DNA of 32,000 nucleotides from Candidatus Saccharimonadota bacterium (lineage in GTDB: Bacteria > Pseudomonadota > Gammaproteobacteria > Johnevansiales > Johnevansiaceae): positions 60,001-92,000 of the forward strand of contig NC_018677.1 of the NCBI RefSeq assembly GCF_000300075.1, in the 5' to 3' direction. Made by a program: the position numbers and the translations under genes. The notes beneath the pieces are model-generated. The model had not been told where the DNA came from. It worked only from the letters and a program-made list of their open reading frames with translations, and made no database searches. This document shows, one piece after another, positions 1 to 18,529 of the stretch. The number at the start of each line of letters is the position of its first letter. The stretch's first letter is position 1.

Positions 1-1147
1 TATTTTTAAACAAAACATCAATTATATATTATTAGTTTAATATATTTTTTTTTGAATTTGATTTGGATTACATAAAGATTTTAACTTGAATAATATCTAC
101 TAAACTTAAAACTTACTAAACAACAAGTTTTTTATAGACACAACTATTCAAACACTCCATATCTGTTCTATCTTTTCTATTTTTCACATCTAATTTATTT
201 TTACACAGGAAAATAATAGGCATTTATACTTGTGTACATGTGTTTTTTTTTATCGGTATCGTTAATACGTAATATATGTTTTTAGATATACGTTTAAAAT
301 AAGTATTTTATATTTTCTTCAAATAACTAATACTAAATATTTTGTTTTTATACAATTAATGTTTTTTTACAAACATATTAATACCTTTTTGTTCAATTTA
401 TCATTACAAATTCTATTAAATAACAACAAAACCTTATTTTACTTGTATACCGTATGACATATATATTTTTCAAACTATACAATACAAAATACAACTCTTA
501 TAGTTAGTTAAGTATTAAACAAACAAGTTTAAGCATTTATAATTTTAACAACAAAATTAACTTAACCAATAAATTTAAAAGAAACAACTACTATAAACAA
601 ACACATTAATCTACTATTTAAACATTACATCCACTACTAACAATTTAACCCTTAACCCTTTTCTACATCTACATTCATTAAACCTACAGCATATTTTACA
701 TAGTATATACAACCTTCTATATATTAGTAAACTTTACAAGTCTATACAAAAAAGAATAGTTACTATACAGCATACAACTTTAAGCAATAAACAACATACA
801 GCAGAACCCAATAAATCCATTAACCATACTAATAAAAAAACTGTAATACAAAAGCTAAACAAAAATATCATCTAAAACCATAATAACAAACAAAAAAAAA
901 TACAACACATAACATAGAAAAAGTAGAAAAAAAAAACAACAAAATAGCATATAGACAAAAAAAAAGAACAGTAAACAGCAAAGAAAAAGAGAAAAATTAT
1001 ACAATACAGAAAAAGATGGTTATATAGTAAAGAAAAAACCATAAAAACACAGAAAGCTAACCATCAAAACTAAACAAAAGACTACGTAGATAAATAGAAA
1101 TATATATAAAAAGTATAAAAAAAATAAGAATATAAGTAAAATTAGAT
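1..1147. other. Long non-coding block, A/C-rich and G-poor on the + strand (strongest about 420-960), with a purine/A-rich tail about 960-1140
   Basis: No ORF of 60 aa or more on either strand in the supplied track. Hand count of 541-780 gives C=49, G=8 in 240 nt. Low-complexity motifs recur (catctaaa, aaacaac, aaccctt x2 at 647-660). Confidence 0.8.
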
Positions 1148-1950
1148 ATGGGGACCACAGCATCAGGAAAAAAAGTTAGCTATAACTTTAAAAGAATATA
1201 AAATTGTGAGTTAATTAGTGTAGATTCAGCTATGGTTAATAGAAAGATGGATATCGGAACAGCAAAACAAAAATATAGATATCATGAATTAATATATATA
1301 AAAATAATAATGAAAAATATTTAGATTTGGATTTTCGTAAAGAAGCAATAAAAACAATTAGTAAGTTAGGAAAGATTCATATTTTAGTTTGTGGTACAAT
1401 GTTTAATTTAAAAACTTTATTAGAAGGAATAGCAACAATAACTTTTTACAATATTAAATTAAGCAATAAGTATTGTTTATTATTTAATAATAAATTATTT
1501 CATAAAACTGTATTAAAATTATATAATAAAGACATTTATCGAATAAAACGATTATTAGAAGTATATTTAAATACTGATTAATTAATATTGGAAAAACAAT
1601 AATAAAAATTTAAATGAAATGTAATAAAAATTATTATTAAACACAATAACAAGGAAAACTTATATAAAACCGTGTTAATACGTTTAAATATTATTTTTGA
1701 AAAAGCTTTCATCACACAAGTATAAATGTTAACGTTTATGAAAAATATGTATTTAGAATTACCTGAAAATCGAAGTATAGGTTATCGGAAAATTGGTGAC
1801 TTTGTTGATGAAAAATATAATTATTTTATTTTAAAAGATAAGATTTAATCAGCTAATAGAAACTTAGCAAAAAAAAAATTATGGTTACAAAAATATAAAG
1901 ATGCTTTTTTGTTAGATGCTTATAAACATAAAAATAGAAATAGAGATTAG
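1148..1950 (+). pseudogene. miaA: tRNA dimethylallyltransferase (MiaA) pseudogene
   Basis: Translated pieces align colinearly with MiaA. MGTTASGKK (degenerate P-loop GPTASGKT) at 1148, ELISVDSAMVNRKMDIGTAKQ at 1208-1270, LDFRKEAIKTISKLGKIHILVCGTMFNLKTLLEGI at 1327-1431 (this is the 84-aa track ORF), RIKRLLEVY, RSIGYRKIGDFVD at 1771-1809, NLAKKKLWLQKY about 1860-1895. Broken by in-frame stops at 1199-1201, 1322-1324, 1579-1581 and 1846-1848, plus a frame change near 1320. Confidence 0.8.
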
Positions 1951-2022
1951 GTTGTATAATTAGTTGAAATAAATATTACAGAAGAATGGAAAAAAAAATA
2001 TATTATATAGTATTATAAATGT

Positions 2023-3198
2023 ATGAAAAATTATGAAAAAAATTTATTACCTGATGGTATAAAGGAAATATTACCCCCACAATCTATAAATATAGAGAAT
2101 TTAAGAAAAAAATTATTAAATTTATATTATAAATATGGTTATAACTTAATTATACCTCCCCATATAGAGTTTTTAGAAACATTATTGAATGTTGTAGGAT
2201 ATGATTTAGAACTACAAACAGTTAAGTTAATTGATATGTTAAGTGGTAAATTAATTGGTTTAAGTGCAGATTCAACACCTCAAATTGCTAGGATAGATTC
2301 TAATGTATTAAAAAACAAAGGACCGTACAGGGTGTGTTATTGCACAAATGTGTTTCGTGCTTTTCTTGATGAAGATCAGAATGATTTAGAAAGAACGCCT
2401 ATACAAGTAGGAATAGAATTGCTAGGATATAAAGGTTTAGAAGCAGATATTGAAATAATAATTCTTACTATAAAAAGTTTAATAGTATCTGGCGCAAAAC
2501 ATATAAATTTATCAGTTGGACATATTGGCATATATAAAGTATTAGTAAAAAAATCTAAAATAAAAAAAAAATATTTAAAACAGTTGTTTGAAGCCATAGA
2601 CAATAAATCATATACTGATGTAGATCTTTTAATAGATAAAATAAACGTTGATTTTAAAGTAAGGAAAATATTTAAACTGCTACCTAAATTACATGGTGAT
2701 TTTAAGATTATACAAAAAGCATATAAAACAATATCGTATATTAAAGAAATAAAAGTACTGTTAGATGAATTAAAAGAAATCTATAAGCTTATAAATAAAA
2801 AAGTAAAAAATATCTCTATATATTTTGATTTATCAGATTTAAAAGGTTATCAATATCATAATGGTTTTATATTTACAGCTTATGTGTCTGGTGTCGTAAA
2901 ACCATTAGCAAAAGGAGGTAGATATGATATTGGTCAAAAATATGGAAAGCAAAGCCCAGCCACAGGGTGTACTTTTGATTTAAATTTACTTATATCCTTA
3001 CATGAGAAACAAGAAAATATAAAAGAAGGAATATTAGCACCTTTTTTAGAAGATAAAAAATTAGAAAAAAAAATAAATGAGTTAAGATTTTATGGAGAAC
3101 AAGTTATACACGAATTACCAGGAGTTTGTACGAAGGAAAATAATTGTAACAGAAAGTTATGTTTAATAAAAAAAGAATGGCAAATAAGATGTTTATAA
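2023..3198 (+). CDS. hisZ: ATP phosphoribosyltransferase regulatory subunit (HisS paralogue)
   Basis: 391-aa intact ORF. LPDGIKEILPPQS...YGYNLIIPPHIEFLETLL...LSADSTPQIARID...GGRYD matches the class-II aaRS-like HisZ core without an anticodon-binding domain. Lies at the ancestral position between the hflC side and purA. Confidence 0.8.
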   Translation: MKNYEKNLLPDGIKEILPPQSINIENLRKKLLNLYYKYGYNLIIPPHIEFLETLLNVVGYDLELQTVKLIDMLSGKLIGLSADSTPQIARIDSNVLKNKGPYRVCYCTNVFRAFLDEDQNDLERTPIQVGIELLGYKGLEADIEIIILTIKSLIVSGAKHINLSVGHIGIYKVLVKKSKIKKKYLKQLFEAIDNKSYTDVDLLIDKINVDFKVRKIFKLLPKLHGDFKIIQKAYKTISYIKEIKVLLDELKEIYKLINKKVKNISIYFDLSDLKGYQYHNGFIFTAYVSGVVKPLAKGGRYDIGQKYGKQSPATGCTFDLNLLISLHEKQENIKEGILAPFLEDKKLEKKINELRFYGEQVIHELPGVCTKENNCNRKLCLIKKEWQIRCL

Positions 3199-3865
3199 AC
3201 AAAATAAAGATTATGTTGAGACAAGAATATAGTTTTAAATACTATTAATACAATTTGTGATGAATGTAAAGCAAAAGTAGTAGATTATGTAACTTATTTA
3301 TCCATAAATACAGTCGTTCGATAAAATTGTGGTCATACACTAGTTAGAAAAATAAAATTAATACCATAAGTTAGTTTAAGATCGAAGGAAATTTGTATAA
3401 TAAGCAAAGGAGTCGTTAGTTCATAAAATAATTTGTTGAAGTAAATAGACATTATAAAACTTAATAAAAGATTTATTATTTCATAATAATGTTTAAAAAA
3501 AATTGACTAACATGTACTGTTAGATATAGCAATAGAAATTTATTTAAATCAACAAAAATCGGCACTACTAAGTGTGTAATTTTCCCAGTATACGAAGACA
3601 TACTAGCTATAAGATTTATTAAAATTAGTGATATCTTATTTAAGGAACAGTTTTATTTTAAAGATACAATAAGTTAAATTTTTAGTTTTGTATTGAAAAT
3701 TCTTTTATAAATAAACAATTTACATTAAAATCAAGTCTTTGAGCACACAATTGTTTTACTAAAAAGTTTACGTAAGTTCTTTTAAAAAAAATATAATAAA
3801 TGTTAAAAAAAAATTTTTTGTCAAAGGTATTTTGTTAGGAGCACAATTTAAAAATTAGATATAGA

Positions 3866-3955
3866 CTTATCCCTATGTTACGAGCTCAACTACTATTTAT
3901 TTGTGGTCTTATCCCTATGTTACGAGCTCAACCACTATTTATTTGTGGTCTTATC
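3866..3955 (+). repeat. 42-bp tandem repeat, 2.1 copies, one mismatch
   Basis: cttatccctatgttacgagctcaac[t/c]actatttatttgtggt at 3866-3907 and 3908-3949, then a partial third copy cttatc at 3950-3955. Lies inside the purA pseudogene. Confidence 0.95.
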
Positions 3956-4200
3956 AATTGTACTTGTGGTTTTTATAACTTAACAATACAACTAATTGTC
4001 TTTAAAAAAAGAAAATAGGTATATATTTATTTATTAAAGCAAACGAACAAGGTAAAAACACTGGTATTTAAAAGAAGCTGTTTATTGTTTAGTAAGTAAA
4101 GTTTGTTATATATTAATAATAATAAAATATATGCTTAAGTAAGTTATAGGTTTTAGAACTTAAAAAAAAGATTAAAGCATATGTCTTGATTTAAAAAATT

Positions 4201-4252
4201 AGTATAAATACAACAGTCTTAAAAACAGTATAAATACAACAGTCTTAAAAAC
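4201..4252 (+). repeat. 26-bp perfect tandem repeat, 2 copies
   Basis: agtataaatacaacagtcttaaaaac at 4201-4226 and 4227-4252, identical. Lies inside the purA pseudogene. Confidence 0.95.
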
Positions 4253-4435
4253 GTGAAAGGTTTGAGGCAACCCAATAACGGTACTGTGAATTAGCTTAGA
4301 AAACATTACCAAAATAATCAAAAGTTAATATTAGGTTTCTATAGAAAAAACAAAATATTTAACTCGTGATTAGATCGCCATGATAAAATATTAAGGATAC
4401 TATCATATTAAAATTTACTTTAAGAGAAACAATAG

Positions 4436-5860
4436 GTGAGAAATACAGATAAAACTTTAGTAAAATTGTTTGATAAAAAAGACTATAAATATGGTTTTAA
4501 AATAAACATCGCTAGTAACGTACAGTTACCAGGTTTAAATAAAAAAATAATACGTAATTTATCGAAACAGAAAAAAGAACCAAAATGGATGTTAAAATGG
4601 CGATTAGAAGCTTATTTAAAATGGTTAAAGATGAAACCACCCTTTTGGGCTATATTTAAAACACCAGAAATAAATTATAAAGAAATGTCTTTTTATAGCT
4701 CGCCCCAAAAAAAATATTTAGATAAAAAGTTATTACATGTTTACAAAAAATTAGGTGTGAATTTGTATGATAAAAAAAAACAAACAATAGCTATAGATGC
4801 GGTTTTAGATTCAGTGTCAATCGCAACTACATATAAAAAAAAATTATATAAATTAGGAATTATTTTTTGCTCTATTTCAGAAGCAATAATGAAATATTGT
4901 GATCTAATACAACTATACTTAGGGTCAGTTGTACCGAATGATGATAATTATTTTGCTTCATTAAATTCTGCAGTATTTACAGATGGATCTTTTGTGTTTT
5001 TACCAGAAGGAAAAAAAAGCCCTATAGAATTATCAACTTATTTTCGTTTGAACTCTGAAAAATTAGGACAATTTGAAAGAACTTTAATAATATGTGAGAA
5101 AAGAGCAGAAGTTTCTTATTTAGAAGGTTGCACAGCAACTATATACGATTCGAATCAATTGCATGCTGCTGTCGTTGAATTAATAGCTTTTGAAGAGAGT
5201 TATATAAAATATTCTACAGTACAAAATTGGTATCCAGGTAATAAATTTGGCAAAGGAGGCATTTATAATTTTGTAACCAAACGTGGTTTATGTAAAGGAA
5301 TAAAATCAAAAATCAGTTGGATTCAATTAGAAACAGGCTCAGCAATAACATGGAAATATCCTTCGTGTATCCTGTTAGGTGATTTTTCGAAAGGTGAATT
5401 TTATTCAATGGCCATAACAAATAATAAACAAAAAGCTGATACGGGAACTAAAATGATTCATATAGGGAGCAATACAAAATCTACAATAATTGCTAAGGGT
5501 GTTGCTATTGGTAAGTCTAAACAAGCTTATAGAGGTTTAGTTAAAATTAGCAAACACGCCAGTAACTCAAGCAATTTTACTCAATGTGATTCATTAATAA
5601 TAGGCAAAACAAGTACTATTTACACAATACCTTATCAAGCTATAAAGAACGATACGGCAATAGTAGAACATGAAGCTACTGCATATAAAATAAATAAAGA
5701 AAAAATGTTTTATTTAATGCAACGTGGTATAAATAAAGAAAATACTATAAATATGATAGTAAATGGCTTTTGTAAAGATATTTTTCAAAAATTGCCAATG
5801 GAGTTTGCAGTTGAAGCGTCTGCTTTGTTAGAAATTACATTAGAAGGGTCGTTAGGTTAA
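4436..5860 (+). CDS. sufB: Fe-S cluster assembly scaffold protein SufB
   Basis: 474 aa with a GTG start. MRNTDK... parallels E. coli MSRNTE. Full-length similarity includes KEPKWMLKWRLEAY, FERTLII, YLEGCTA, QLHAAVVELI, YSTVQNWYPG, SAITWKYPSCIL, ADTGTKMIHIG, NGFCKDIF. Confidence 0.97.
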   Translation: MRNTDKTLVKLFDKKDYKYGFKINIASNVQLPGLNKKIIRNLSKQKKEPKWMLKWRLEAYLKWLKMKPPFWAIFKTPEINYKEMSFYSSPQKKYLDKKLLHVYKKLGVNLYDKKKQTIAIDAVLDSVSIATTYKKKLYKLGIIFCSISEAIMKYCDLIQLYLGSVVPNDDNYFASLNSAVFTDGSFVFLPEGKKSPIELSTYFRLNSEKLGQFERTLIICEKRAEVSYLEGCTATIYDSNQLHAAVVELIAFEESYIKYSTVQNWYPGNKFGKGGIYNFVTKRGLCKGIKSKISWIQLETGSAITWKYPSCILLGDFSKGEFYSMAITNNKQKADTGTKMIHIGSNTKSTIIAKGVAIGKSKQAYRGLVKISKHASNSSNFTQCDSLIIGKTSTIYTIPYQAIKNDTAIVEHEATAYKINKEKMFYLMQRGINKENTINMIVNGFCKDIFQKLPMEFAVEASALLEITLEGSLG

Positions 5861-7791
5861 ACTTTTTTATGCTTTAGTGTTTACTTGTTTTATTTTATGC
5901 GTTATCTGTTATCTTTTTTGTTGCTTTTTTACTCTTTTTGTTATGTTGTTTAGCTTATATCTGTTTAATGTCATTTAAAACATTTGTGTTATGTTTGTTT
6001 AATGTTGTGTAAGTGGTTTAGCTGATAAATGTTGTTTATAATAAAGAAATTATGCGTTTAGTATTGAATTTATTTTTGGTAAATTGTTTTGCTTGAATGC
6101 TAATGTATAAAAAAAAAGATGTTGTAGTAAATTTATAGTTAATTAGTTAGTAAGGATTAAAATGTTAAGCAGTTAGGTTTGTTATTGGTTTTGTGTTTGC
6201 TTAATGTTAAAGCAGTTAGGTTTGTTTTTGCTGTTTATGTTAAAGAAGGTATGAAAGTTGTATCGTTTAGAAAATAGATAAACTAAAAGCTTGGTGTTAA
6301 ATTACTTATTTTATGTTAAAGGTTAAGTTTTGGATAAAACTGTTGTGTGTGATAGGTAAACTAAAAGCTTTTATGAAAATATATTATGCTTAAAGAATAG
6401 GTTGTTGCTTGTTTGTTTAAGGGTAGGTGTAGAAACAGTAAAGGTGTTGTATTTTGTATAAAAATAGAAAAGAGTAAAAGTATAAAGGGGTAAAGGTTAG
6501 TGGAGTGGTTAAATGTTAAGTAGTTAGATTGTAGGTCTTTAGGTTTGTTTATTTTTGCTTAAGGTTTGTTTGTTTTGTGAGTGGTGTTAGTGGTTAAATT
6601 AAAGGCTAAATAGTTGGTGGTTTTTTTTTTGCTTGAGATATAGGTTTGTTGGTGTATGGTATGGTTTGTAGTAAAATATAAAGGTTTTGTGATTTGTTTA
6701 TGGCTTTGTATTAAATGTTTTTGCTTAATCTTATATTTTTTTAAATTCTGTATTTATGGTTGTTGTTTTTTATAACTTAAAAAGTTAAACTCAGTTCTCT
6801 TTTTATACCAATGTGTATATAATGTTTTAAGGCTTAATGCTATAGGTTTTAGGTCGTTATGTAGTTGTGGTTTTATTTTTTGTTGACTTTTTTCTTTTTC
6901 TTTATGTTTAGTTTTTTTTATGCTTATTTAAATTCCATTTTTTTCGTTGTATTATTTTACATATAAGTGTATTTGTATCTACGTATTGTATTATAAACTA
7001 TAAAGGTTGTTGTATAAATATATAGTAAAAAAAAAGAAAGAAATGAAAGTAGGTAGATGTTGTATAGCTAAAAAAAAAGATGGTGTTAATAGTTTGTGTT
7101 CGTAAAAGGTTTGTGTTAAGAGGTGTTAGAAGTAGGGTTTGTGTTAATAAAATGTGAGTTTGTATTTAGCTGTATGTGTAAAGTGTGTAAGCTGTAAAAA
7201 TTGTGGATTACGTATTGTAATTTGTAAGCAGCTGTATGCATGGTGTAGTGTGTTTATGGTATATAGTCGGTTCTGTGGATATGGGTTGTAAATTAAAATA
7301 TTGTTGTTTTTTTTTATAGAAAACAAAAGAGCTAATAAGAAATTGATTGTTTTGTATTAACAAAAGAGCTAATAAGAAATTGATTGTTTTATATATATTG
7401 GTGTAGTGTGTGTAAAAAATATTATGTAGAAGTGGTAAGTTAGTTTTGAAAGTTTTGTTATGTATTGTGGTTGGTGTGTTATGTTCAACATATTGTAAAT
7501 AGGTGAGTTATTATATCAGTTGTATTCATATGAAAAAAGTATGGTGTAAAAGTATTAAGTTTATTGACTAATTTATATATTGTATAATTAAAACTAAAAA
7601 GTTTATGGTTAAATTAAAAGCTAGTAGCTCTAAGTTCTTAGTTTAAGGTTTATATTATAAATGCTGTAGGGTAATAGGTTTAAAGTAAACGTTTTAAAAA
7701 TGATGTTGTTAGTAAATTATGTTTGTAAAATAAATATGCTGTATGGTTAGAAAGAAAAGTAATGTAAGTAAATATTAATGGTTATATTAAA
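5861..7791. other. 1.9-kb non-coding G/T-rich, C-depleted block separating sufB from sufC
   Basis: Only one 60-aa minus-strand ORF in the track. Hand count of 6421-6660 gives G=71, C=5 in 240 nt. Made of degenerate dispersed and tandem short repeats (aatgttaa(a)gcagttaggtttgtt, taaactaaaagctt, ggttaaattaaa(g/a)gcta, tgcttaa). Confidence 0.85.
7322..7390 (+). repeat. 32-bp perfect direct repeat with 37-bp period
   Basis: aacaaaagagctaataagaaattgattgtttt at 7322-7353 and 7359-7390, separated by gtatt. Confidence 0.95.
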
Positions 7792-8529
7792 ATGTTAAAA
7801 ATAGAGAATTTAAAGGTTAATATAAAAAAAAATAATATATTACAAAGTATTAACATAAAGATAAAAACAGGTGAATTACATGTAATAATGGGGCCAAATG
7901 GGTCAGGGAAATCAAGTTTAGTATCAACATTGGTTGGAAAAGAAAATTATACAATAAAGAACGGGAAATTGTTTTTTAATGGTATTAATATTTCAGAGCT
8001 AAACATAGAAGAAAGATCTAAAGTTGGAATGTTGTTGAGCTTTCAAAATCCCATTTCTATAGCAGGCGTTAAAAATATATATTTTTTACATACAGCTTTA
8101 AATGAAAAATTAACGTATTTACAAAACGAAACAATAACTGTTTTACAAGTAATAAAAAAAATAAAACAAAAAATGAAATATTTAAAAATAGAAAAAAAAC
8201 TTTTAAATAGAGATGTAAATGAAGCATTTTCAGGTGGGGAGAGAAAAAAAAATGAACTTTTACAAATGTTATTGTTAAAACCAAAAGTCGCTTTACTTGA
8301 TGAAATAGATTCAGGATTAGATATAGATTCAATGAAAGTTGTATCAAATGGAATAAATTTGATTAAATCTAAGAAATGTTCGATTGTTTTAATTACTCAT
8401 TATAAACGTATATTAAATTATATAGAGCCTAATTTTATACATATTTTAGTTGATGGAAAGATTATAAAATCGGGTGATAAAACTTTAGTAAATGAAATAG
8501 ACCTCTTTGGTTATAAAAATTATGTGTGA
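7792..8529 (+). CDS. sufC: Fe-S cluster assembly ATPase SufC
   Basis: 245 aa. Walker A GPNGSGKSS, signature FSGGERKKNE, Walker B LLDEIDSGLDID, THY. Colinear with E. coli SufC. TGA stop. Confidence 0.97.
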   Translation: MLKIENLKVNIKKNNILQSINIKIKTGELHVIMGPNGSGKSSLVSTLVGKENYTIKNGKLFFNGINISELNIEERSKVGMLLSFQNPISIAGVKNIYFLHTALNEKLTYLQNETITVLQVIKKIKQKMKYLKIEKKLLNRDVNEAFSGGERKKNELLQMLLLKPKVALLDEIDSGLDIDSMKVVSNGINLIKSKKCSIVLITHYKRILNYIEPNFIHILVDGKIIKSGDKTLVNEIDLFGYKNYV

Positions 8530-9544
8530 TTTATTAAATATTGATGCTTATATGATTGTATTTATAGATGGTAAACTGTCAAAAAAATACTCAAATGTAA
8601 TTAACTCATGTGAAGTAAATATAATTTATTTAAAAAATAATCTTATGAATAAAGAAACTGATAAAATAAAAAAAAAATATTACACTTATAGTGGTTTAAT
8701 ACTTAATTTAAAATCAAATATAAAAATAAAAAAACCAATTTATATGTTACATATTTCAAAACAAAAAATATATAAACAAATTAATTTAAAAATATTAGTT
8801 TTGGTTGAGAAAAAGCTAAAAATACAAATTTTAGAGCATTATATAAATAAAAGTAGCAACAAACATATAAATAATATAAAAATGGAAATGAATATTAGTG
8901 ACGAGGCAAAGATTACATGGTTTCATTTAGTTGCTTTAAATACAATAGATTATTGTTTATCAAATATTGTTGTAAATCTAAGTAAATATAGTAATTGTGA
9001 GTTTTATAATATAAAGATATATAGCTATTTTTTGTATTATAACTTAGAAATTAATTTAAAAGATGAATATAGTAAATGTGATGTGGTAGGGTTGTTTTCT
9101 CCGAAAGATAAAAATTTTATAAGAAATAACATAATTATTAATCATATAACGAGTTTTACAAAATCTAATGTAAATTATAAAGGTTTAATAAGTTCGACAG
9201 GACTTTTACATTGTTATATCAACATAAAAAAAAATATAAAAAATATATATGGCATTCAAAAATCTTCAAATATATTATTGTCTAATAAGGCTACGATTAA
9301 AACAAATCCGAAATTAAAAATAAAATCAAAAGATGTGGTCTGTACACATAAAACTATTGTTGGTAAAATAAATGAAGATTATATTTTTTATTTGAGAACA
9401 AGAGGATTAACAAAACCGTTAGCTAAATCATTAATATTATTAAGTTTCATTAATGACTTTTTAACTAAAATTGAAATAAAAGCGTTTAAACGATATTTAG
9501 GTTGTACAAAAATAATAAAGTTAAAAGATGCTTATAGACAATAA
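8522..9544 (+). CDS. sufD: Fe-S cluster assembly protein SufD, N-terminally short and highly diverged
   Basis: Position between sufC and sufS. C-terminal similarity KPKLKIKSKDVVCTHKTIVGKINEDYIFYLRTRGL to SufD ([35 protein letters not shown]). The track ORF starts at TTG 8507. The in-frame ATG at 8522 gives an ATGTGTGA overlap with the sufC stop and is preferred. Confidence 0.85.
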   Translation: MCDLLNIDAYMIVFIDGKLSKKYSNVINSCEVNIIYLKNNLMNKETDKIKKKYYTYSGLILNLKSNIKIKKPIYMLHISKQKIYKQINLKILVLVEKKLKIQILEHYINKSSNKHINNIKMEMNISDEAKITWFHLVALNTIDYCLSNIVVNLSKYSNCEFYNIKIYSYFLYYNLEINLKDEYSKCDVVGLFSPKDKNFIRNNIIINHITSFTKSNVNYKGLISSTGLLHCYINIKKNIKNIYGIQKSSNILLSNKATIKTNPKLKIKSKDVVCTHKTIVGKINEDYIFYLRTRGLTKPLAKSLILLSFINDFLTKIEIKAFKRYLGCTKIIKLKDAYRQ

Positions 9545-9546
9545 AA

Positions 9547-10785
9547 ATGTTAATAAATTATATAAAACTAAAAAACAAAATTCTTAAAATAAGAGAAGAG
9601 TTTCCTATATTAAAAAATTGTATACACAAACTATATGAGTTAATTTTTTTTGATAATGCAGCGACAAGTCAAATGCCAAACAATGTAATTAACATAATGA
9701 ATGAATATAATAACTATTATAATGCTAATATACATAGAGGAATAACTTATTTATCAAAGGAAGTTACAATAGCATATGAACGCACAAGAAAAATGGTTTG
9801 TAAAAGTATAAATGCAAAATATAAAGAAGAAATTATATTTACAAAAGGAACTACAGAATCTATTAATATAATATCAAATAGTTATGGTAATTTATTAGAC
9901 AAAGGAAGTGAAATTGTAATTTCTATGATGGAACATCATTCAAATATCCTACCTTGGAAAATTTTATCAATAAATAAAGGATTTAAATTAAAAATAATCC
10001 CAGTAACAGAAACTGGGTTAATAGATATAAAAAGATTTCACAACTTATTGACACATCAAACGAAATTAGTAGTTATAACACATGTTTCTAATGTATTAGG
10101 TACAACAAACAAACTTAACATATTATCAAAAATAGTTCATAAAAAACAAGCTTTAATATTAATAGATGGAGCGCAAGCTATTTCCCATAAAAAGATTGAT
10201 GTACAAAAAATAAAGATAGATTTTTATGTTTTTTCTGCCCATAAAACTTATGGTCCAACTGGAGTTGGTATACTATATGTACGGTTAGACATCTTAAACA
10301 AGATGGATCCTTGGCAATATGGTGGAGACATGGTAAAGTATTTTAGTTTTTTTAAAGAACAAATTATATATTCAGAATTACCTTACAAATTTGAAGCCGG
10401 TACACAAACAATATGTAATATTATAGCTTATTATTCGTCTTTAAAGTGGTTAACAAAAAATTTAAAGTTGATTAAAACTTGGGAAAAACTTTTAGTATAT
10501 TTTATCATTAAAGATTTTCAACAAATAAAAACAATTCATATTATAGGAAGAAGTAAAAAAGTTTCAGTGGTATCTTTTCTTATTGAAGGTATTAATTCAC
10601 ATGATATAGGGTTAGTATTGGATAAATATGGAATTGCTATTAGAACGGGCCATCATTGTGGCCAACCCATATTAACTAATTATGGAATAAATACAGTTTG
10701 TAGAGTCTCATTTGCCTTATATAATAATTTAGAAGAAATAAACACGTTTATAAGAACATTAAAAACACTAATAAAAATATTTTAA
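9547..10785 (+). CDS. sufS: Cysteine desulfurase SufS (class V aminotransferase)
   Basis: 412 aa. FFDNAATSQ, HHSNILPW, FSAHKTYGPTGVGILY (PLP lysine), RTGHHCGQP (active-site Cys loop). Confidence 0.96.
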   Translation: MLINYIKLKNKILKIREEFPILKNCIHKLYELIFFDNAATSQMPNNVINIMNEYNNYYNANIHRGITYLSKEVTIAYERTRKMVCKSINAKYKEEIIFTKGTTESINIISNSYGNLLDKGSEIVISMMEHHSNILPWKILSINKGFKLKIIPVTETGLIDIKRFHNLLTHQTKLVVITHVSNVLGTTNKLNILSKIVHKKQALILIDGAQAISHKKIDVQKIKIDFYVFSAHKTYGPTGVGILYVRLDILNKMDPWQYGGDMVKYFSFFKEQIIYSELPYKFEAGTQTICNIIAYYSSLKWLTKNLKLIKTWEKLLVYFIIKDFQQIKTIHIIGRSKKVSVVSFLIEGINSHDIGLVLDKYGIAIRTGHHCGQPILTNYGINTVCRVSFALYNNLEEINTFIRTLKTLIKIF

Positions 10786-10786
10786 C

Positions 10787-11851
10787 TTAGGTTCTATTAT
10801 AAGTGCTAGAAATAATAGCGCCACCGAAACAAATATTATTGTGATATAAAACAATTGTTTGTCCTTCAGTTATGCCTTTTTGTTTATATAAAAAAGAAAC
10901 TTTTATGTAATTTATAAAGTTATAAACGATACACTGTTGATCTATTTGTCTATATCGTATTTTAGCATATAAAGTAATTTTATTAATTGTTTTATCAAAC
11001 GGATTTTTAAGCCAAATTACATTATTTGCAATTAAAGAATTAGTATATAAAATTTTATTTTTGGTCTTAGCGACAGATAGAATATTTTTATGTATTTTTT
11101 TTTTTATAACATACCAAACAGTTTTATTAAAAGTTTTGGTGATATTAAATCCATTAGTTTGTCCATTTGTATAAAAGAAAAGGCCTTTATGTTGTCCGAT
11201 AATAAGGTTATTTTTTGTTACGATGTTACCAAAGTTAAACGGAAAAAACTTGTTTAAAAAAGATGTAAAGTTGTGATTTCCTACAAAACAAATACCAAAA
11301 GATTCTTGTTTAAAATTTAATTTATAAAAAAGAAAGTTTGCAAGTTTACGTATTTCAAATTTATTATAAAATCCTATAGGAAAAAGAAGTTTGTGAATAT
11401 AATATTTATTTATATTATAAAGGTAATAACTTTGATCTTTATTTAAATCAAGACTTTTAAAAAACAACTTATTTGTTAATCTAATATAATGGCCAGTTGA
11501 CATATAATCAGCGTTTAATACATTAAACGCATATTTTGTTAATAAATTAAACTTTATTTCTTTATTACATAAAGAATCTGGATTTGGGGTTTTACCATAA
11601 ATAAATTCTTGAAGAAAAGTTTTAAAAACATTACTCCAATATTCAGATGTAAAATTTACAATATGTAAAACTATTTTTAATCTATTACATATATATTTAA
11701 CATCAGAAACTTCGTTTTGTAGTTTACACTGACTGTTTAACTCCCAATTTTTCATAAATAACCCTTCAACCTTATATCCTTTTTGTAACAGTAAAAACGC
11801 ACATAAAGAAGAATCTATTCCTCCAGACATACATACAATAATTTTTTTCAT
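10787..11851 (-). CDS. mnmA: tRNA-specific 2-thiouridylase MnmA
   Basis: 354 aa. PP-loop MSGGIDSS at the N-terminus, then GLFMKNW, TPNPDSLCNKEIKF, STGHY, KDQSYYL. Confidence 0.95.
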   Translation of the reverse strand: MKKIIVCMSGGIDSSLCAFLLLQKGYKVEGLFMKNWELNSQCKLQNEVSDVKYICNRLKIVLHIVNFTSEYWSNVFKTFLQEFIYGKTPNPDSLCNKEIKFNLLTKYAFNVLNADYMSTGHYIRLTNKLFFKSLDLNKDQSYYLYNINKYYIHKLLFPIGFYNKFEIRKLANFLFYKLNFKQESFGICFVGNHNFTSFLNKFFPFNFGNIVTKNNLIIGQHKGLFFYTNGQTNGFNITKTFNKTVWYVIKKKIHKNILSVAKTKNKILYTNSLIANNVIWLKNPFDKTINKITLYAKIRYRQIDQQCIVYNFINYIKVSFLYKQKGITEGQTIVLYHNNICFGGAIISSTYNRT

Positions 11852-11857
11852 AATAAC

Positions 11858-12076
11858 TTACCGCGAACGATATATTATACGACCTTTTGTAAGATCATAA
11901 TGTGTTATTTCAACTTTTACTTTATCTCCTGTTAAAATTTTTATATAATTTTTTCTAATTTTACCAGATATATGTGCTGTTATAACATGCCCATTGTCTA
12001 ATTTAACTCTAAACATGGTGTTTGGTAATGTGTCTATAATTCTTCCTTCCATTTCTATTGTGTCTTTTTTTTTCAT
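11858..12076 (-). CDS. infA: Translation initiation factor IF-1
   Basis: 72 aa. [63 protein letters not shown] is near-canonical IF-1. Confidence 0.98.
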
Positions 12077-12104
12077 ATCTTCTTACTTCCTTACATATTT
12101 TTTA

Positions 12105-12133
12105 TTGACATTTTTTACCTTTGATTTAATAAT
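12105..12133 (+). promoter_or_regulatory. Candidate sigma70 promoter for the tRNA-Glu/tRNA-Gly (and possibly yadGH) transcript
   Basis: Perfect TTGACA at 12105-12110, a 17-nt spacer, then AATAAT at 12128-12133 (5/6 to TATAAT), about 14 nt upstream of the mature tRNA-Glu 5' end. AT-rich background makes -10-like hexamers common. Confidence 0.3.
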
Positions 12134-12146
12134 ATTATCTTATTCT

Positions 12147-12218
12147 GTCCCTTTCGTCTAGTGGTTAAGACACTGCTCTTTCACGGCAGTAACATGAGTT
12201 CAATTCTCATAGGGGACA
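12147..12218 (+). tRNA. tRNA-Glu (anticodon UUC)
   Basis: Cloverleaf folded by hand. Acceptor GTCCCTT/AGGGGAC, anticodon stem CTGCT/GGCAG, loop CTTTCAC. Close to E. coli tRNA-Glu. No encoded CCA. Confidence 0.92.
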
Positions 12219-12233
12219 AAAGAAAGAAGAAAG

Positions 12234-12307
12234 GCGGAAATAGCTCAGTTGGTAAGAGTGTCACCTTGCCAAGGTGAAGGTCGCGAGTTCGAGTCTCGTT
12301 TTCCGCT
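12234..12307 (+). tRNA. tRNA-Gly (anticodon GCC)
   Basis: GCGGAAATAGCTCAGTTGGTAAGAG...CCTTGCCAAGG...GTCGCGAGTTCGAGTCTCGTTTTCCGCT is nearly identical in architecture to E. coli tRNA-Gly(GCC). No encoded CCA. Confidence 0.93.
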
Positions 12308-12318
12308 AAGAAGGAAGT

Positions 12319-13257
12319 ATGAAAAAATTAGCATTAAATATAAAAAAATTAACAAAAATTTATAAAAAAAAGAATTATGCGTTAAAAAATATAAATTTAG
12401 AGGTTAGAAAAGGAGATTTTTTTGCAATATTGGGACAAAATGGAGCAGGAAAATCAACAACAATAGGAATAATAAGCTCTTTAATAAAAAAGACTTGTGG
12501 AAAAATAAAAATTTTTGACACAGATATAGATAAAGAAAATTCAAAAGCTAAATGTAATTTAGGTTATGTATCGCAAGAATACAATTTAAATCAATTTGAA
12601 AAGGTTGAAAATATTCTTTTTACACAAGCAGGATTGTATGGCATCTCAAAGAAGTTTTCTAAAGTACGTATTTATAAATTGTTACAAGATTTAAGTTTAT
12701 TTAAACAACGAGAAATAATAGTTAAAAAGTTATCAGGTGGAATGAAAAGAAGATTAATGATTGCGCGTTCTTTAGTACATAATCCAAACTTGTTGATTTT
12801 AGATGAACCAACAGCAGGGTTAGATATTGAATTAAGAAAAAATATATGGGATTATATGTACAATATAAATAAAAAAGAAAAGAAAACTATTATTTTAACA
12901 ACACACTATTTAGAAGAAGCTGAAAGATTGTGTAGAAATGTTGCAATTATAAAGAAAGGTAGAATTATAAAAAATACAAGTATGCAATCGTTATTAAGTA
13001 AAATAGATAGAAATACATTTTTATTAGAAACAAAACATCCTTTAAAAAAAATTCCTTACATTACAGGAGTAAAATTACAAAAAAAAGATTCTTATAACTT
13101 TATAATTTCATTAAAAAAAGGAACAAAATTAAATGAGATTTTTAATATATTTGATAAAGCTAACATAGAGATTGTGGCTATGCGGAATACTTCTAATAGA
13201 TTAGAAGAAAGGTTTTTAAATATAATTGAAAAAGCTAACATAGAGTATAAGATTTGA
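12319..13257 (+). CDS. yadG: ABC-2 type transporter, ATP-binding subunit (YadG-like)
   Basis: 312 aa. Walker A GQNGAGKST, signature LSGGMKRR, Walker B LLILDEPTAGLD, THYLEEAE. SD-like aaggaag upstream. 4-bp overlap with the partner permease. Confidence 0.88.
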   Translation: MKKLALNIKKLTKIYKKKNYALKNINLEVRKGDFFAILGQNGAGKSTTIGIISSLIKKTCGKIKIFDTDIDKENSKAKCNLGYVSQEYNLNQFEKVENILFTQAGLYGISKKFSKVRIYKLLQDLSLFKQREIIVKKLSGGMKRRLMIARSLVHNPNLLILDEPTAGLDIELRKNIWDYMYNINKKEKKTIILTTHYLEEAERLCRNVAIIKKGRIIKNTSMQSLLSKIDRNTFLLETKHPLKKIPYITGVKLQKKDSYNFIISLKKGTKLNEIFNIFDKANIEIVAMRNTSNRLEERFLNIIEKANIEYKI

Positions 13258-14015
13258 AACAAAAAAGAACTATTATAGCACTTAGTACATTAATTAAACG
13301 AGAAGTTGGTAGATTTTTACGAATTTGGCCACAAACTCTATTACCATCGTCAATTACTACTACCATGTATTTTTTTATTTTTGGTAAATTAATAGGTTGT
13401 AAATTAGGTAATATGGATGGTTTAAGTTATATAACTTATATATTTCCAGGTTTAATAATGATGGCGGTAATAACAAATAGTTATTCAAATGTAGCGTCTT
13501 CTTTGTTTGGTAATAAATTTCAACGTTCTATAGAAGAGTTACTCATATCTCCTATGCCTAGTTTTTTGCTAGTAGACGGTTTTATTTTAGGGGGGTTGTT
13601 TAGAGGTTTATTAGTAGGTTTAATTGTTACTTTTGTAGCTTTACTTTTTACAAAAATAAATATTGTACATCCTTTTTTAACAATAGTAATAGTGATTTTA
13701 ACATCTATATTATTTTCATTAGCAGGTTTTATTAATGCATTAGTAGCGAAAAAATTTGATGATATCTCAATTATCCCGAGTTTTGTTTTAACGCCTTTAA
13801 CTTATCTTGGGGGTGTTTTTTATAATATAAATTTACTACCAGAGTTTTGGAAAAATTTGTCATTAATCAATCCAATAGTTTATATTGTGAATACTTTTAG
13901 ATATGGGATTTTAGGTGGCTCAGATCTTGTTATAGGAAAATCATTAATTGCAATAATTATATTTATATTATTTTTTTATATAGTTTCATTACGTTTATTA
14001 AAAAAAGGTATATAG
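13254..14015 (+). CDS. yadH: ABC-2 type transporter permease (YadH-like)
   Basis: 253 aa with a TTG start overlapping the yadG stop. REVGRFLRIWPQTLLPSSITTTMYFFIFG...FPGLIMMAVITNSYSNVASSLFGNKFQRSIEELL...FVLTPLTYLGGVFY...LNPIVYIVNTFRYG aligns along its full length with E. coli YadH. Confidence 0.88.
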   Translation: MKQKRTIIALSTLIKREVGRFLRIWPQTLLPSSITTTMYFFIFGKLIGCKLGNMDGLSYITYIFPGLIMMAVITNSYSNVASSLFGNKFQRSIEELLISPMPSFLLVDGFILGGLFRGLLVGLIVTFVALLFTKINIVHPFLTIVIVILTSILFSLAGFINALVAKKFDDISIIPSFVLTPLTYLGGVFYNINLLPEFWKNLSLINPIVYIVNTFRYGILGGSDLVIGKSLIAIIIFILFFYIVSLRLLKKGI

Positions 14016-14029
14016 TTAGTCTGAATATT

Positions 14030-14113
14030 GGAGAGGTGTCCGAGTGGACTAAGGAGCACATTTGGAAAGTGTGTAAGTTTTAGACTTCAAGGGTTCGAAT
14101 CCCTTTCTCTCCG
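14030..14113 (+). tRNA. tRNA-Ser (anticodon GGA), long variable arm
   Basis: GGAGAGGTGTCCGAGTGG...CACAT TTGGAAA GTGTG...GGGTTCGAATCCCTTTCTCTCCG. Type-II tRNA that matches the E. coli tRNA-Ser(GGA) layout. No encoded CCA. Confidence 0.9.
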
Positions 14114-14156
14114 TTAAATCAAAGAACATAAAGATCATTAGGAGAATAAAATAAAT

Positions 14157-15095
14157 ATGCAAATAGGTATTATTGGTTTAGGTAAAATGGGAGGTAATAT
14201 TTCTAAAAAATTTTTAAAAAATAAATATACTTGTTATGTTTTTGATAAAAATAGAAAGAATATAAAACACATAGAAAAAAGGGGAGCACTAGGCGTAAAC
14301 TCTTTAAAATGCTTGGTTTTAAGTTTATCGAACCCTAGAACAATTTTGTTAATGTTGCCAGCAGGGAAAATAACGGAAAAAATCATTTTAAAAATCACAA
14401 AATATATGGAAAAAGGAGATACGATTTTAGATGGGAGTAATGGGTATTTTAAAAAAGATATCAAAAGATCTGAACAATTATTTATAAGAGGAATTAATTA
14501 TCTAGATGTAGGTGTTTCAGGGGGAATATGGGGTTTAAAACGAGGTTATTGTATGATGATCGGAGGAAATAAAAAGATTTTTGAAAAAAAAACGACTATA
14601 TTTTTTAGTTTATCTTCAGACAATTCAAAATGTTATATGTATTGTGGTAAAGTTGGTTCAGGGCATTTTGTTAAAATGATACATAACGGTATAGAGTATG
14701 GAATGATGCAATCTTATGCCGAAGGTTTTGATATAATTCATAATATAAACAACAAACATGTACTTTATAAACATCGTTATAACTTAAATATATATGATAT
14801 TTCTGAAATATGGCGTAGAGGAAGTGTAATTGAGTCTTGGTTGTTAGATTTGATTTCTATTTCTTTAGCGCACGATGTCACTCTCAATGATTTTAGTGGT
14901 AAAGTGAATGATTCAGGTGAAGTGCGATGGCTTGTACAAACAGCTTTAGAAGAATCAATGCCCTTAGACGTTTTAACTACCTCTTTATATGTTCGTTTTA
15001 AATCGAGGTATAATAATAGATATGGTGATAAATTGCTATCAGCTATGCGCAAACAGTTTGGTGGCCATATAGAACTTTTATATCCTTCTTCCTAA
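14157..15095 (+). CDS. gnd: 6-phosphogluconate dehydrogenase (decarboxylating), short YqeC/Gnd-like form
   Basis: 312 aa. Rossmann IGIIGLGKMGGN at the N-terminus, GSGHFVKMIHNGIEYGMMQSYAEGF signature, RRGSVIESWLLDL, and C-terminal RKQFGGH. Confidence 0.8.
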   Translation: MQIGIIGLGKMGGNISKKFLKNKYTCYVFDKNRKNIKHIEKRGALGVNSLKCLVLSLSNPRTILLMLPAGKITEKIILKITKYMEKGDTILDGSNGYFKKDIKRSEQLFIRGINYLDVGVSGGIWGLKRGYCMMIGGNKKIFEKKTTIFFSLSSDNSKCYMYCGKVGSGHFVKMIHNGIEYGMMQSYAEGFDIIHNINNKHVLYKHRYNLNIYDISEIWRRGSVIESWLLDLISISLAHDVTLNDFSGKVNDSGEVRWLVQTALEESMPLDVLTTSLYVRFKSRYNNRYGDKLLSAMRKQFGGHIELLYPSS

Positions 15096-15152
15096 TTACT
15101 TCTTTTTTTTTTACTTGTTGTTTTCTTTTTTCTTTATAGTCTTTTTTATACC

Positions 15153-15193
15153 AACATCAAACATCAAACATCAAACATCACCTATCACCTATC
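15153..15193 (+). repeat. Heptamer microsatellite (aacatca)x4 followed by (cctatca)x2
   Basis: aacatca at 15153, 15160, 15167 and 15174, then cctatca at 15181 and cctatc at 15188. Confidence 0.95.
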
Positions 15194-15410
15194 TAACATC
15201 TATAACTTCTTACTAACAACCAAATATCAACTTCTTACTACCAACATCTAACAACAAAATGGCTAACTAACTAACTAAAACATATAAACACCAACTACTA
15301 AACTATAACCATATAAATACAATAATATAACATATAAACACAACAAACTAAATAACGAAACACAAAAATATAACAGAAGACAAGATACTAAACTTCAAAA
15401 TTATAACTAG

Positions 15411-15445
15411 AAACAACAAACAACAAACAACAAACATCAAACATC
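15411..15445 (+). repeat. Heptamer microsatellite (aaacaac)x3 followed by (aaacatc)x2
   Basis: Five consecutive 7-mers read directly from the sequence. Same motif family as 15153-15180. Confidence 0.95.
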
Positions 15446-16164
15446 TACCTACAAACTACTTAAATACACACATATAACTACAAACTAATAACTTATAAAC
15501 ATATTATATAAAAAATAAATAATAATAACATATATATGTATAAAATATAAAAAACTATATATAAATACAAACTTTTAAAAGCAACAAATAACATCTAAAT
15601 AAAAACAAACTAACAACTCTAACCTCTAACATTCTTTATTCATACATATAACATCTAATAACTAACATAACTTTAATATTACATATTAGTAATTAATATA
15701 ACCGAAACCAATAAAACAACACCAGCAAATATATAAATTCTAAATAACATAGAACAATATAACGAAATAACAATATACCATATATAAACAACATATATGG
15801 AAAGATAAAGGCAGATAAAAAAAAAGAAAGCAAACATATGATATCTAATAACATCATCTAAATAACATTAAACATATAACTTAGAAGAAAAGAAACATCT
15901 AACAGCAAAAATTACACTAAACATATAACATAAATAAAAAAGCTATAAAAAGGGAAAGATAATTAAGAACAACACATCTAAACACTAAATATTAAATATA
16001 ACAGGTAATAAAAAACAAAAAATTATAAATGCTAACAGCTATAAACATAAAAACTTAAGAATTAAGAAAAATAAAACTGCAAAAAACAAAGAATCAGATG
16101 AGCAATACTGCAAAACTACACTATATAAGTAAATAACACAGAACAAAGCATGCCACATAAACAG

Positions 16165-16235
16165 GCGAACATAGTTTAAGGGTAAAACATTAGCCTTCCA
16201 AGTTAATGATACGGGTTCGATTCCCGTTGTTCGCT
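16165..16235 (+). tRNA. tRNA-Gly (anticodon UCC), glyT-like
   Basis: GCGAACATAGTTTAAGGGTAAAACATTAGCCTTCCAAGTTAATGATACGGGTTCGATTCCCGTTGTTCGCT parallels E. coli glyT. Anticodon loop CTTCCAA. Confidence 0.9.
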
Positions 16236-16242
16236 AATAATC

Positions 16243-16315
16243 GCTCATGTAGCTCAGTTGGTAGAGCACACCTTTAGTAAAGGTGAGGTCAACGGTTCAA
16301 TTCTGTTCATGAGCT
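16243..16315 (+). tRNA. tRNA-Thr, thrT-like body with anticodon AGU (A at wobble position 34)
   Basis: GCTCATGTAGCTCAGTTGGTAGAGCA CACCT TTAGTAA AGGTG AGGTC AACGG TTCAATT CTGTT CATGAGC T. Aligns position-for-position with E. coli thrT (CACCC TTGGTAA GGGTG), so the anticodon is AGT at 16276-16278. Confidence 0.85.
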
Positions 16316-16333
16316 CAAGCAGTTATAGTTGTA

Positions 16334-16406
16334 AGGTCAGTAGCTCAATTGGTAGAGTAGCGGTCTCCAAAATCGAAGGGTGGGGGTTCAATTCCCTCCT
16401 GGCCTG
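16334..16406 (+). tRNA. tRNA-Trp (anticodon CCA)
   Basis: AGGTCAGTAGCTCAATTGGTAGAGTAGCGGTCTCCAAAATCG...GGGGGTTCAATTCCCTCCTGGCCTG. Loop CTCCAAA. Canonical position just upstream of secE. Confidence 0.92.
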
Positions 16407-16426
16407 AAGAAAAAATAGGAAAAACG

Positions 16427-16771
16427 ATGAAAAAAAACAAGCAAAGCAAAAAAAAAGATTATTTAAAGTTGTTGTTTTCTATTCTGAATATATTAATTGC
16501 AATGTATTTATTAAAAAAAAATAAATATATATTTTTATGTTTGTATAGTTTGAGTTTATATTTAATGTTAGTTACTGTAAAAGGAAAAGAATTAAGAATT
16601 ATAGGAAAGATTGCAAAAAAAGAAATACAAAGTGTAGTGTGGCCAAAAAAAAAAGAAATAATAAAGACAACAAGCGTAGTTTTATTAATTATATTTATAA
16701 TAAGTATTATAATATGGACATTAGATACTTTAATTAGTGGATTAATAACAATTATGATAAATCAAAGCTAG
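16427..16771 (+). CDS. secE: Preprotein translocase subunit SecE
   Basis: 114 aa, hydrophobic. C-terminal EIQSVVWPKKKEIIKTTSVVLLIIFIISIIIW matches the conserved SecE TM3 region. Lies between tRNA-Trp and nusG. Confidence 0.9.
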   Translation: MKKNKQSKKKDYLKLLFSILNILIAMYLLKKNKYIFLCLYSLSLYLMLVTVKGKELRIIGKIAKKEIQSVVWPKKKEIIKTTSVVLLIIFIISIIIWTLDTLISGLITIMINQS

Positions 16772-16786
16772 TTAAAGGGAAAACAA

Positions 16787-17344
16787 GTGAAAAAAAGATG
16801 GTATGTTGTTAATATATATTCAGGTTATGAAAAACAAGTTATAAGTGATTTAAAAACTAGAATTAAAAGATATAAATTAGAAACAGCATTTGGAAAAATG
16901 ATAGTACCTTCAGAAACTTTGTTTGAAAAGATAATAGTACCTTCAGAAACTTTGTTTGAAAAGATATCAGGTAAAATACGTAAAAGTGACCGGCAATATT
17001 ATCCAGGATATATATTAGTAGAAATGGAATTAAATGATAAAACATGGAATTTAGTAAATGAAACAAAAAGAGTAGTTAGATTTATAGGATCAAATGTAAA
17101 AAAACCTGCCGTTATAAAAAAAAATGAATTTAAACAAATACTAAGTAATGTAAAAAAACATATAGATCAAAAACTTTTAAAATTAGGAGAAAGAATAAGA
17201 GTGCTAGAAGGTCCTTTTGCTGAGTTTACAGGTATTGTAGAAGAAATAAATTATGAAAAAAAGAAAGTTAAAATTAGTGTTTTAATTTTTGGCAGATCAA
17301 CTCCAGTAGAAATAGACTTTTATAAAGTAATTAAGGATATCTAA
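16787..17344 (+). CDS. nusG: Transcription termination/antitermination factor NusG, carrying an 11-aa internal tandem duplication
   Basis: 185 aa with a GTG start. [25 protein letters not shown], and KOW region [41 protein letters not shown]. Confidence 0.96.
16901..16966 (+). repeat. Perfect 33-bp tandem duplication, in frame within nusG
   Basis: atagtaccttcagaaactttgtttgaaaagata at 16901-16933 and 16934-16966, identical. Encodes [11 protein letters not shown] twice. Confidence 0.97.
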
Positions 17345-17345
17345 A

Positions 17346-17783: not shown

Positions 17784-17803
17784 ATAAAACGAGGCAGGTA
17801 AAA

Positions 17804-18493: not shown

Positions 18494-18529
18494 TACTGGC
18501 ATACAATCACTCATAAAAGGAGTAAGAGT

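Follow-up and report, generated by a model that had tools for sequence, protein, structure and literature searches.

The question raised by this locus is how 1931 nucleotides (nt) of DNA came to lie between sufB and sufC in the genome of the endosymbiont Candidatus Portiera aleyrodidarum from Bemisia tabaci, and why one strand of that DNA is so rich in G and T and so poor in C. The stretch analyzed here (the window) comprises 32,000 nt of the forward strand of contig NC_018677.1 (assembly GCF_000300075.1, positions 60,001 to 92,000), and all coordinates below are positions within it. The element in question, to which we refer as the block, is the following.

5861–7791, no strand: sufB–sufC spacer (the block), 1931 nt, noncoding; the + strand is G/T-rich and C-poor

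We consider it probable that the block is nonfunctional filler DNA that arose de novo at the sufB–sufC junction and grew by slippage from T/G-rich seeds. The evidence comprises its lineage-specific origin, neutral rates of change, slippage-type indels, a period-7 structure, the mixed polarity of comparable spacers, and a mutation spectrum made up largely of transversions.

Composition and content of the block

The base count of the block is A 590, C 87, G 397, and T 857, that is, C 4.5%, G 20.6%, and T 44.4% on the + strand, compared with C 10.3% and G 16.5% for the whole window. An earlier reading made from the sequence alone (hereafter the original prediction) had described sufB and sufC as 1931 bp apart with a noncoding insert between them, in which G exceeds the level of the flanking genes. 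Both descriptions hold, the G fraction (27%–30% locally) being above the 16.4% of sufB and the 15.4% of sufC, and its hand count for 6421–6660 (G = 71 and C = 5 in 240 nt) proved exact on recount. When the skew profile that it had proposed was run over the 32 kb, the block emerged as the extreme of both measures, with 500-nt windows inside it having the top GC skew (+0.54 to +0.77) and the top G+T fraction (up to 0.72). The first part of the block is T-rich.

5861–6000, + strand: T-rich sub-segment of the block, ∼55%–60% T and C ∼10% (100-nt composition table)

A second T-rich segment of similar kind is found at ∼6700–7000 (repeat pair 5908–5937 / 6870–6899, 80% identity).

No open reading frame (ORF) in the block exceeds 60 amino acids (aa), and those found encode low-complexity strings of Cys, Phe, Leu, and Val. 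Searching the block against Rfam gave no match at the gathering threshold, nor at E ≤ 1; a tRNA search of the block found none; and blastn of the block against plasmid and phage collections returned no match. As for traces of mobile elements, the block contains no transposase ORF, and its inverted repeats are short and A/T-rich. It also has no G-quadruplex potential.

Distribution across Portiera lineages

An exact copy of the block is found in CP016304.1 (Candidatus Portiera aleyrodidarum from Bemisia tabaci), and the SufC protein of the window is identical to that of Portiera genomes of 350–359 kb, which places the window genome among the B. tabaci / Aleurolobini Portiera. The same SufC protein is, in fact, shared by every B. 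tabaci Portiera genome retrieved. The length of the spacer in B. tabaci Portiera varies between assemblies from 1867 to 1931 nt, at 98.0%–100% identity, and the spacer is present in at least five distinct sequences, drawn from four complete NCBI genomes, one JGI contig (identical to one of these four), and separate Logan assemblies. A diverged sister lineage (SufC 88% identical; three separate assemblies) has a spacer of 1652 nt at the same junction, and its composition is more extreme (C 2.8%, G 18.4%, T 55.4%). Five further Portiera lineages were compared, namely, a T. vaporariorum-type genome, the Aleurodicus genome LN734649, and three metagenome lineages; their gaps between sufB and sufC are 1, 13, 3, 1, and 1 nt, and none of the five has a gene between the two. 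The junction is thus normally contiguous and the insert lineage-specific, as the original prediction had supposed, and the junction alignment that it suggested shows that the spacer varies in length both within and between the two lineages that carry it.

It is hardly conceivable that the block is an assembly artifact, an error that the original prediction had named as a way in which it could fail. Repeats of low complexity do pose problems for assembly, and 454 reads underlie some of the early Portiera genomes (PMC3673631), but the spacer recurs at 98%–100% identity in the complete NCBI genomes, the JGI contig, and the Logan assemblies, and all three assemblies of the diverged lineage carry one.

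The block could also be what is left of a gene, or of foreign or mobile DNA, that entered the sufB–sufC junction by insertion or translocation and then decayed. Gene remnants do occupy other spacers of the window, as listed here, and the genome underwent many inversions (PMC3673631).

3223–4449, + strand: purA pseudogene, used as an internal control; tblastn E = 3e-38 to the intact purA of genome L094; mild skew
1148–2007, + strand: miaA pseudogene, only mildly skewed

We judge such an origin of the block to be very unlikely, however, given that the five relatives have no gene at the junction, that the plasmid and phage searches were negative, and that tblastn with neighboring ancestral proteins finds nothing in the block, yet detects the purA and miaA remnants (further points, from periodicity and composition, are given below).

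There is no specific homology between the spacers of the B. tabaci and sister lineages outside the last ∼45 nt. Matches of ∼58% identity obtained between them with blastn are compositional, in that every skewed spacer attracts such hits when read in the corresponding orientation, and were discarded. The part that does align specifically adjoins sufC.

7747–7791, + strand: sufC-proximal conserved stretch, local alignment z = 4.3 versus shuffles (junction comparison)

This stretch is the one part of the spacer that is conserved in the diverged sister lineage as well, and it is probably the translation-initiation region of sufC. Its final 14 nt, ATGGTTATATTAAA (7778–7791), lie directly 5′ of the sufC ATG, are identical in the B. 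tabaci and sister lineages, and depart from the ancestral junction, ...GGTTAAAATG. Because both lineages share this derived 14-nt sequence before sufC, the comparison indicates that the spacer originated once, before the two lineages split.

Repeats and slippage

The block contains both dispersed and tandem repeats, the clearest of which are the following (tandem copies as called by Tandem Repeats Finder, TRF).

6160–6235, + strand: two copies, 43 nt apart, of the repeat unit AATGTTAA(A)GCAGTTAGGTTTGTT; a third copy is at 6511–6530
6537–6576, + strand: 21-nt tandem duplication (AGGTTTGTTTATTTTTGCTTA); TRF period 21, 1.9 copies
7322–7394, + strand: 37-nt tandem duplication; TRF 2.0 copies, 36 nt at 97% identity

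The individual copies of the first unit lie at 6160–6179, 6203–6222, and 6511–6530, and other dispersed repeats occur at 6274–6292 / 6352–6370 and at 6586–6608 / 7601–7623; all four of the repeat sets given in the original prediction were recovered. Repeated 12-mers number 43 in the block, versus 5.6 ± 3.2 in dinucleotide-preserving shuffles, and 22 (versus 5.2 ± 3.3) once the 37-nt tandem duplicate is set aside. Autocorrelation of the block gives z = 5.6 at lag 7 and z = 3.5 at lag 14, with the signal spread along its length, and there are 64 matches to two GTTGTTT units in the window where 15.9 ± 4.2 are expected. Known pseudogenes lack the period-7 signal (there is no such autocorrelation in the purA pseudogene), which is a further point against a decayed gene.

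Strains differ in the block by twelve indels of 1–21 nt, mostly not multiples of three, and the direction of change could be polarized for a few. The longer indels mostly lie between short direct repeats (e.g., AGGTTTGT, TTTTTC, AGTGG). An 8-nt indel (TAGGTTTG) inside one copy of the AATGTTAA(A)GCAGTTAGGTTTGTT unit separates the strain clades, and the 21-nt duplication listed above, flanked by AGGTTTGTTT, is found in only one of six strains, the one that matches the window (L084). Further examples are a TTTTTC duplication and a 14-nt unit beginning AGGT. Indels between direct repeats of this kind are the signature of slipped-strand duplication and deletion. Together with the period-7 signal and the k-mer excess, they support the proposal, made in the original prediction, that the block grew by local duplication or slippage of C-free units. 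The search for an ancestral unit that accompanied this proposal succeeded in part, yielding repeats and a period of 7 and no identifiable seed.

It should be noted that within-block k-mer matches are also somewhat enriched at offsets of ∼540–555 and ∼960 nt, which hints at older, larger segmental duplications. When the two halves of the block are aligned with a ∼960-nt duplication in mind, z is only 2.0.

Neutral evolution and expression of sufC

Comparison of the two clades of B. tabaci strains gives divergences of 0.017 for the block, 0.019 for the purA pseudogene, and 0.021 for the mutL gap, as against 0.009 for fourfold degenerate (4-fold) sites and 0.001 for codon positions 1+2. The block therefore diverges at the pseudogene rate, about twice that of 4-fold sites; that is, it evolves neutrally. 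A conserved ORF or a structured RNA, either of which the original prediction had said would contradict it, was not found.

These figures bear directly on the idea that the spacer is functional or selected, for example as a new promoter or leader for sufCDS, as a G/U-rich RNA, or as a buffer against rearrangement. The idea draws on the continuing need for sufC expression, on the ∼45 nt before sufC that are conserved between lineages, and on the lack of any terminator-like site in the block, and a selective role of long spacers has been raised as speculation (PMC7821994). However, everything outside the last 45 nt changes at the pseudogene rate, takes indels freely, and has no specific alignment with the sister lineage, and besides the negative Rfam and G-quadruplex results, promoter-like sites are not enriched in the block (11 versus 13.4 ± 3.4 in shuffles). 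We regard a selected function for the spacer as quite unlikely.

The genes on either side of the block are intact.

4436–5860, + strand: sufB, intact; NCBIfam NF008773, 739 bits
7792–8529, + strand: sufC, intact; TIGR01978, 303 bits

In a C-terminal comparison, the SufB C terminus (...LLEITLEGSLG*) is unchanged relative to that of relatives, and sufD and sufS come after sufC. The simplest supposition is that sufC would be expressed via read-through from sufB across the spacer.

The suf operon can be set beside the fusA-tuf-rpsJ ribosomal-protein operon to the right of the window (L221, 10525–20498), where, unlike in the suf operon, gaps are 2–30 nt and there are no expanded spacers.

Polarity of the skewed spacers

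The block is not the only skewed spacer in the window, and two others are needed for comparison.

15096–16163, no strand: mirror-image spacer whose + strand is A/C-rich, at A 53%, C 17%, and G 5%; heptamer arrays of AAACAAC, AACATCA, and AACTACA
1–1147, no strand: A/C-rich spacer at the former mutL site; G/T-rich in the orthologous gap of the sister lineage

The spacer at 15096–16163 has stronger autocorrelation than the block (z = 7.8, 5.2, and 3.1 at lags 7, 14, and 21), and in the sister lineage an AAACAAC array of 9.9 copies occurs in another spacer. Matches to the GTTGTTT units cluster by strand: the block has them exclusively on the + strand, 1–1147 exclusively on the − strand, and 15096–16163 almost exclusively on the − strand. 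With regard to their location, 15096–16163 occupies the former dnaX site and 1–1147 the former mutL site of relatives, and no protein-level trace of dnaX or of mutL was found in the respective spacer. The former is also a rearrangement breakpoint (gnd then dnaX-dapA-aceE in relatives; tRNAs and secE here).

The three spacers are flanked by + strand genes within 15 kb, and their GC skews are +0.64 (block), approximately −0.39 (1–1147), and −0.56 (15096–16163). At 4-fold sites of all + strand genes there is a mild G>C, A≥T skew, the sign of which is constant along the window. Because spacer polarity flips within 15 kb while 4-fold sites stay mildly skewed, the skew of the block is not ordinary replication or transcription skew. 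The uniform skew and polarity of intergenic DNA that the original prediction had considered as a mundane explanation is thus not seen, the spacers differing in polarity.

In the sister lineage, the sufB–sufC and gnd–secE spacers share the polarity of their B. tabaci counterparts, and the polarity of the mutL gap is reversed (+0.29 in the sister, −0.39 in B. tabaci). The sister lineage also has a 1009-nt A/C-rich spacer between an ABC permease gene and gnd, where B. tabaci has 141 nt. In all seven of the skewed spacers examined, G pairs with T and C with A.

A skew of this kind might instead have been made in place by locally strand-asymmetric mutation, either through prolonged exposure of one single strand in replication by a replisome without single-stranded DNA-binding protein (SSB), clamp, and proofreading, or through transcription across the spacer, with unconstrained DNA drifting to a G/T-rich equilibrium. 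That the sister lineage keeps the polarity at sufB–sufC and gnd–secE, though the sequences no longer align specifically, speaks for this explanation. We nevertheless think it unlikely: 4-fold sites of the flanking genes are only mildly skewed and of constant sign, spacers in like gene context have opposite polarity within 15 kb, the mutL gap flips between lineages, and the purA and miaA pseudogenes, which lie on the same strand, are just mildly skewed (the bearing of mutation rates is considered below). It is likewise improbable that the polarity records strand-asymmetric mutation (e.g., T>G in excess of A>C on an exposed strand), or that a new sufC-proximal promoter uncoupled sufCDS from sufB. 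Were it true that polarity tracks replication or transcription, the spacers would be neutral recorders, from which one could infer how a chromosome is copied that has no clamp, clamp loader, SSB, or proofreading subunit of its own.

Mutation spectrum and composition

In a six-strain, 20.7-kb alignment (L081–L086, window ∼1–18500) there are 197 transversions versus 18 transitions. Transversions make up ∼92% of substitutions, which is unusual for a bacterium, and the bias is seen in all site classes, 4-fold sites among them. Between lineages whose loci have stayed compact and of ancestral type, with mutL and dnaX retained (L090, L098, L099), transversions versus transitions number 97/22 and 35/7 (∼82%). 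Loss of dnaQ was considered as the source of the bias and rejected because these lineages are equally biased.

When the skewed spacers are oriented so that the strand in question is keto-rich, the changes that could be polarized comprise 10 T>G, 10 G>T, 14 T>A, and 7 A>T, together with 3 A>C, 4 C>A, 1 T>C, and 3 A>G. Gains of G or C in these spacers thus came about by 13 transversions (T>G or A>C) versus 4 transitions, and for the block the polarized set includes no C>T, one A>G, five T>G, and four G>T changes. With transitions this rare, the statement in the original prediction that C-to-T decay cannot explain the block stands. Because A:T>C:G and G:C>T:A changes swap T with G and A with C, G travels with T and C with A.

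We used a strand-symmetric Markov model with the measured rates to follow composition from several starting points, namely, (GTTGTTT)n, poly-T, and a gene in either orientation. From (GTTGTTT)n or poly-T, the model comes within a root mean square (rms) difference of 0.06–0.07 of the block composition. From a gene, in either orientation, the G+T of 0.65 is out of reach (rms 0.15, the value also for an inverted gene), which again counts against a decayed gene. A transition-dominated spectrum leads in the model to a T/C-rich strand instead.

Proposed origin of the block

On the reading that the block is nonfunctional filler DNA grown by slippage, the process would have started at the sufB–sufC junction before the B. 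tabaci lineage separated from one sister lineage, and the block would have kept turning over since then. Short direct repeats would have bounded the duplications, and the deletions, of T/G-rich units (GTTGTTT-type heptamers and, later, units of 6–37 nt). An AT-rich repeat unit of such small size would have only one or two G/C letters, all on one strand, so that the array founded on it would inherit a one-sided skew, and the sign of the skew would be a founder accident, separately for each spacer. New G/C letters would then enter mainly via A:T>C:G changes, by which the T-rich strand would gain G and not C, with G>T changes removing G. Seed-inherited polarity and the transversion spectrum together would keep G with T and C with A without any C-to-T decay. 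We infer the identity of the seed and the founder account of polarity; the repeats, rates, and substitutions described above are observations.

Several points weigh against this reading. The transversion bias is also present in compact-spacer Portiera, and accounts for composition and not for growth. Perfect heptamer arrays are rare within the block, where the evidence is mostly statistical, and no seed was identified. One candidate, a duplicated sufB-stop/sufC-start junction, was rejected: there is a 12-nt identity at 6157–6168, but junction k-mers are not enriched (for k = 8, 20 versus 14.1 ± 5.3 in the block, and none in the sister lineage). In addition, the seven skewed spacers represent perhaps five independent events in ∼50 kb of two lineages. 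Finally, T>G per site is 2.2-fold A>C on the keto-rich strand (13 events), and the symmetric model yields a C fraction of 0.09 where 0.045 is observed (i.e., it is about two-fold over).

The last two points also favor strand-asymmetric mutation as described in the preceding section on polarity. On the other side, the differences in per-site rate between the strands are not significant (p = 0.27, 0.75, and 0.66), and a deamination-type mechanism needs transitions, which are rare here. Real strand asymmetry, or continual re-amplification of G/T-rich units, may contribute to the low C content of the block.

Relation to known systems

The Portiera from B. tabaci has abnormally large, microsatellite-rich intergenic regions, far larger than those in the Portiera of T. 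vaporariorum (Sloan and Moran 2013, PMC3673631). A spike of 7-bp tandem repeats and 7-bp indels has been published for the same genome, with no deletion bias (PMC3673631), and further accounts of this class of spacers are available (Santos-Garcia et al. 2015, PMC5322561; 2020, PMC7821994). The block shares with these expanded spacers the organism, the excess length (1931 nt versus 1–13 nt), the period-7 structure, and strain indels of which most of the longer ones lie in repeats, and it is a member of this already published class. The original prediction had regarded the block as unusual for a suf operon; the insert is real, but it is one instance of a genome-wide class rather than singular. 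The B. tabaci Portiera has lost dnaQ, dnaN, dnaX, holA, holB, mutL, ruvC, and ssb (PMC3673631; PMC7821994; PMC5322561), and mutL and dnaX are absent at their syntenic positions in the window genome. The three papers (PMC3673631, PMC5322561, and PMC7821994) cover spacer length and repeats, one of them also noting the loss of a global GC-skew pattern, and do not mention per-spacer polarity or its variable sign. A literature search found no description of the Portiera transversion bias.

The replication GC (keto) skew of leading strands resembles the skew of the block in its excess of G and T on one strand. It differs in having one polarity per replichore, synonymous sites included, whereas the Portiera spacers flip and 4-fold sites are mildly skewed. 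The heavy strand of animal mitochondrial DNA is another G/T-rich, strongly C-poor strand, in a small and repair-poor genome, and its skew is put down to deamination of DNA exposed as a single strand, which causes C>T and A>G transitions. In Portiera, transitions are only ∼8% of changes, and a deamination-driven skew was rejected on the substitution counts given above.

Degenerate micro- and minisatellites of eukaryotes arise by slippage or unequal exchange from a short seed, inherit its strand asymmetry, and decay to low complexity. The block differs from these in its setting, an essential bacterial operon in an endosymbiont genome of 350 kb, from which DNA of this kind is as a rule purged. 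It shows a tiny, repair-poor endosymbiont genome gaining junk DNA, even in an essential operon, contrary to the usual bacterial deletion bias, a point that was already made in 2013 for this genome. What is added here is modest and rests on ∼50 kb from two lineages, namely, a keto/amino polarity of each spacer whose sign varies between spacers and between lineages, and ∼90% transversions, which would explain why G is found with T.

Other observations

The purA pseudogene corresponds to the hisZ–sufB gap, where the gene is intact in four other Portiera lineages (L094, L097, L098, and L099). It contains repeats of its own, a 42-bp tandem (3833–3955) and a perfect 26-bp repeat in two copies (4201–4252). 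The miaA gene is split into ORFs of 184 and 104 aa in T. vaporariorum-type lineages and is intact (310 aa) in Aleurodicus Portiera.

A repeat is also present within a coding gene. At 16879–16966, nusG contains an in-frame 33-bp tandem repeat (2.4 copies, 93% identity), and the predicted length of NusG is 196 aa in two Logan assemblies (L081 and L087) versus 185 aa in the remaining strains, which suggests that the repeat copy number is polymorphic. In the sister lineage, mnmA is a 178-aa fragment in one assembly (L094, 13250–14068) and a full 354-aa gene in another (L096, 3681–4745), which may be a polymorphism or an assembly difference. Lastly, ARAGORN identified a tRNA-Thr with anticodon AGT at 16243–16316; A34 is uncommon for a bacterial tRNA-Thr.

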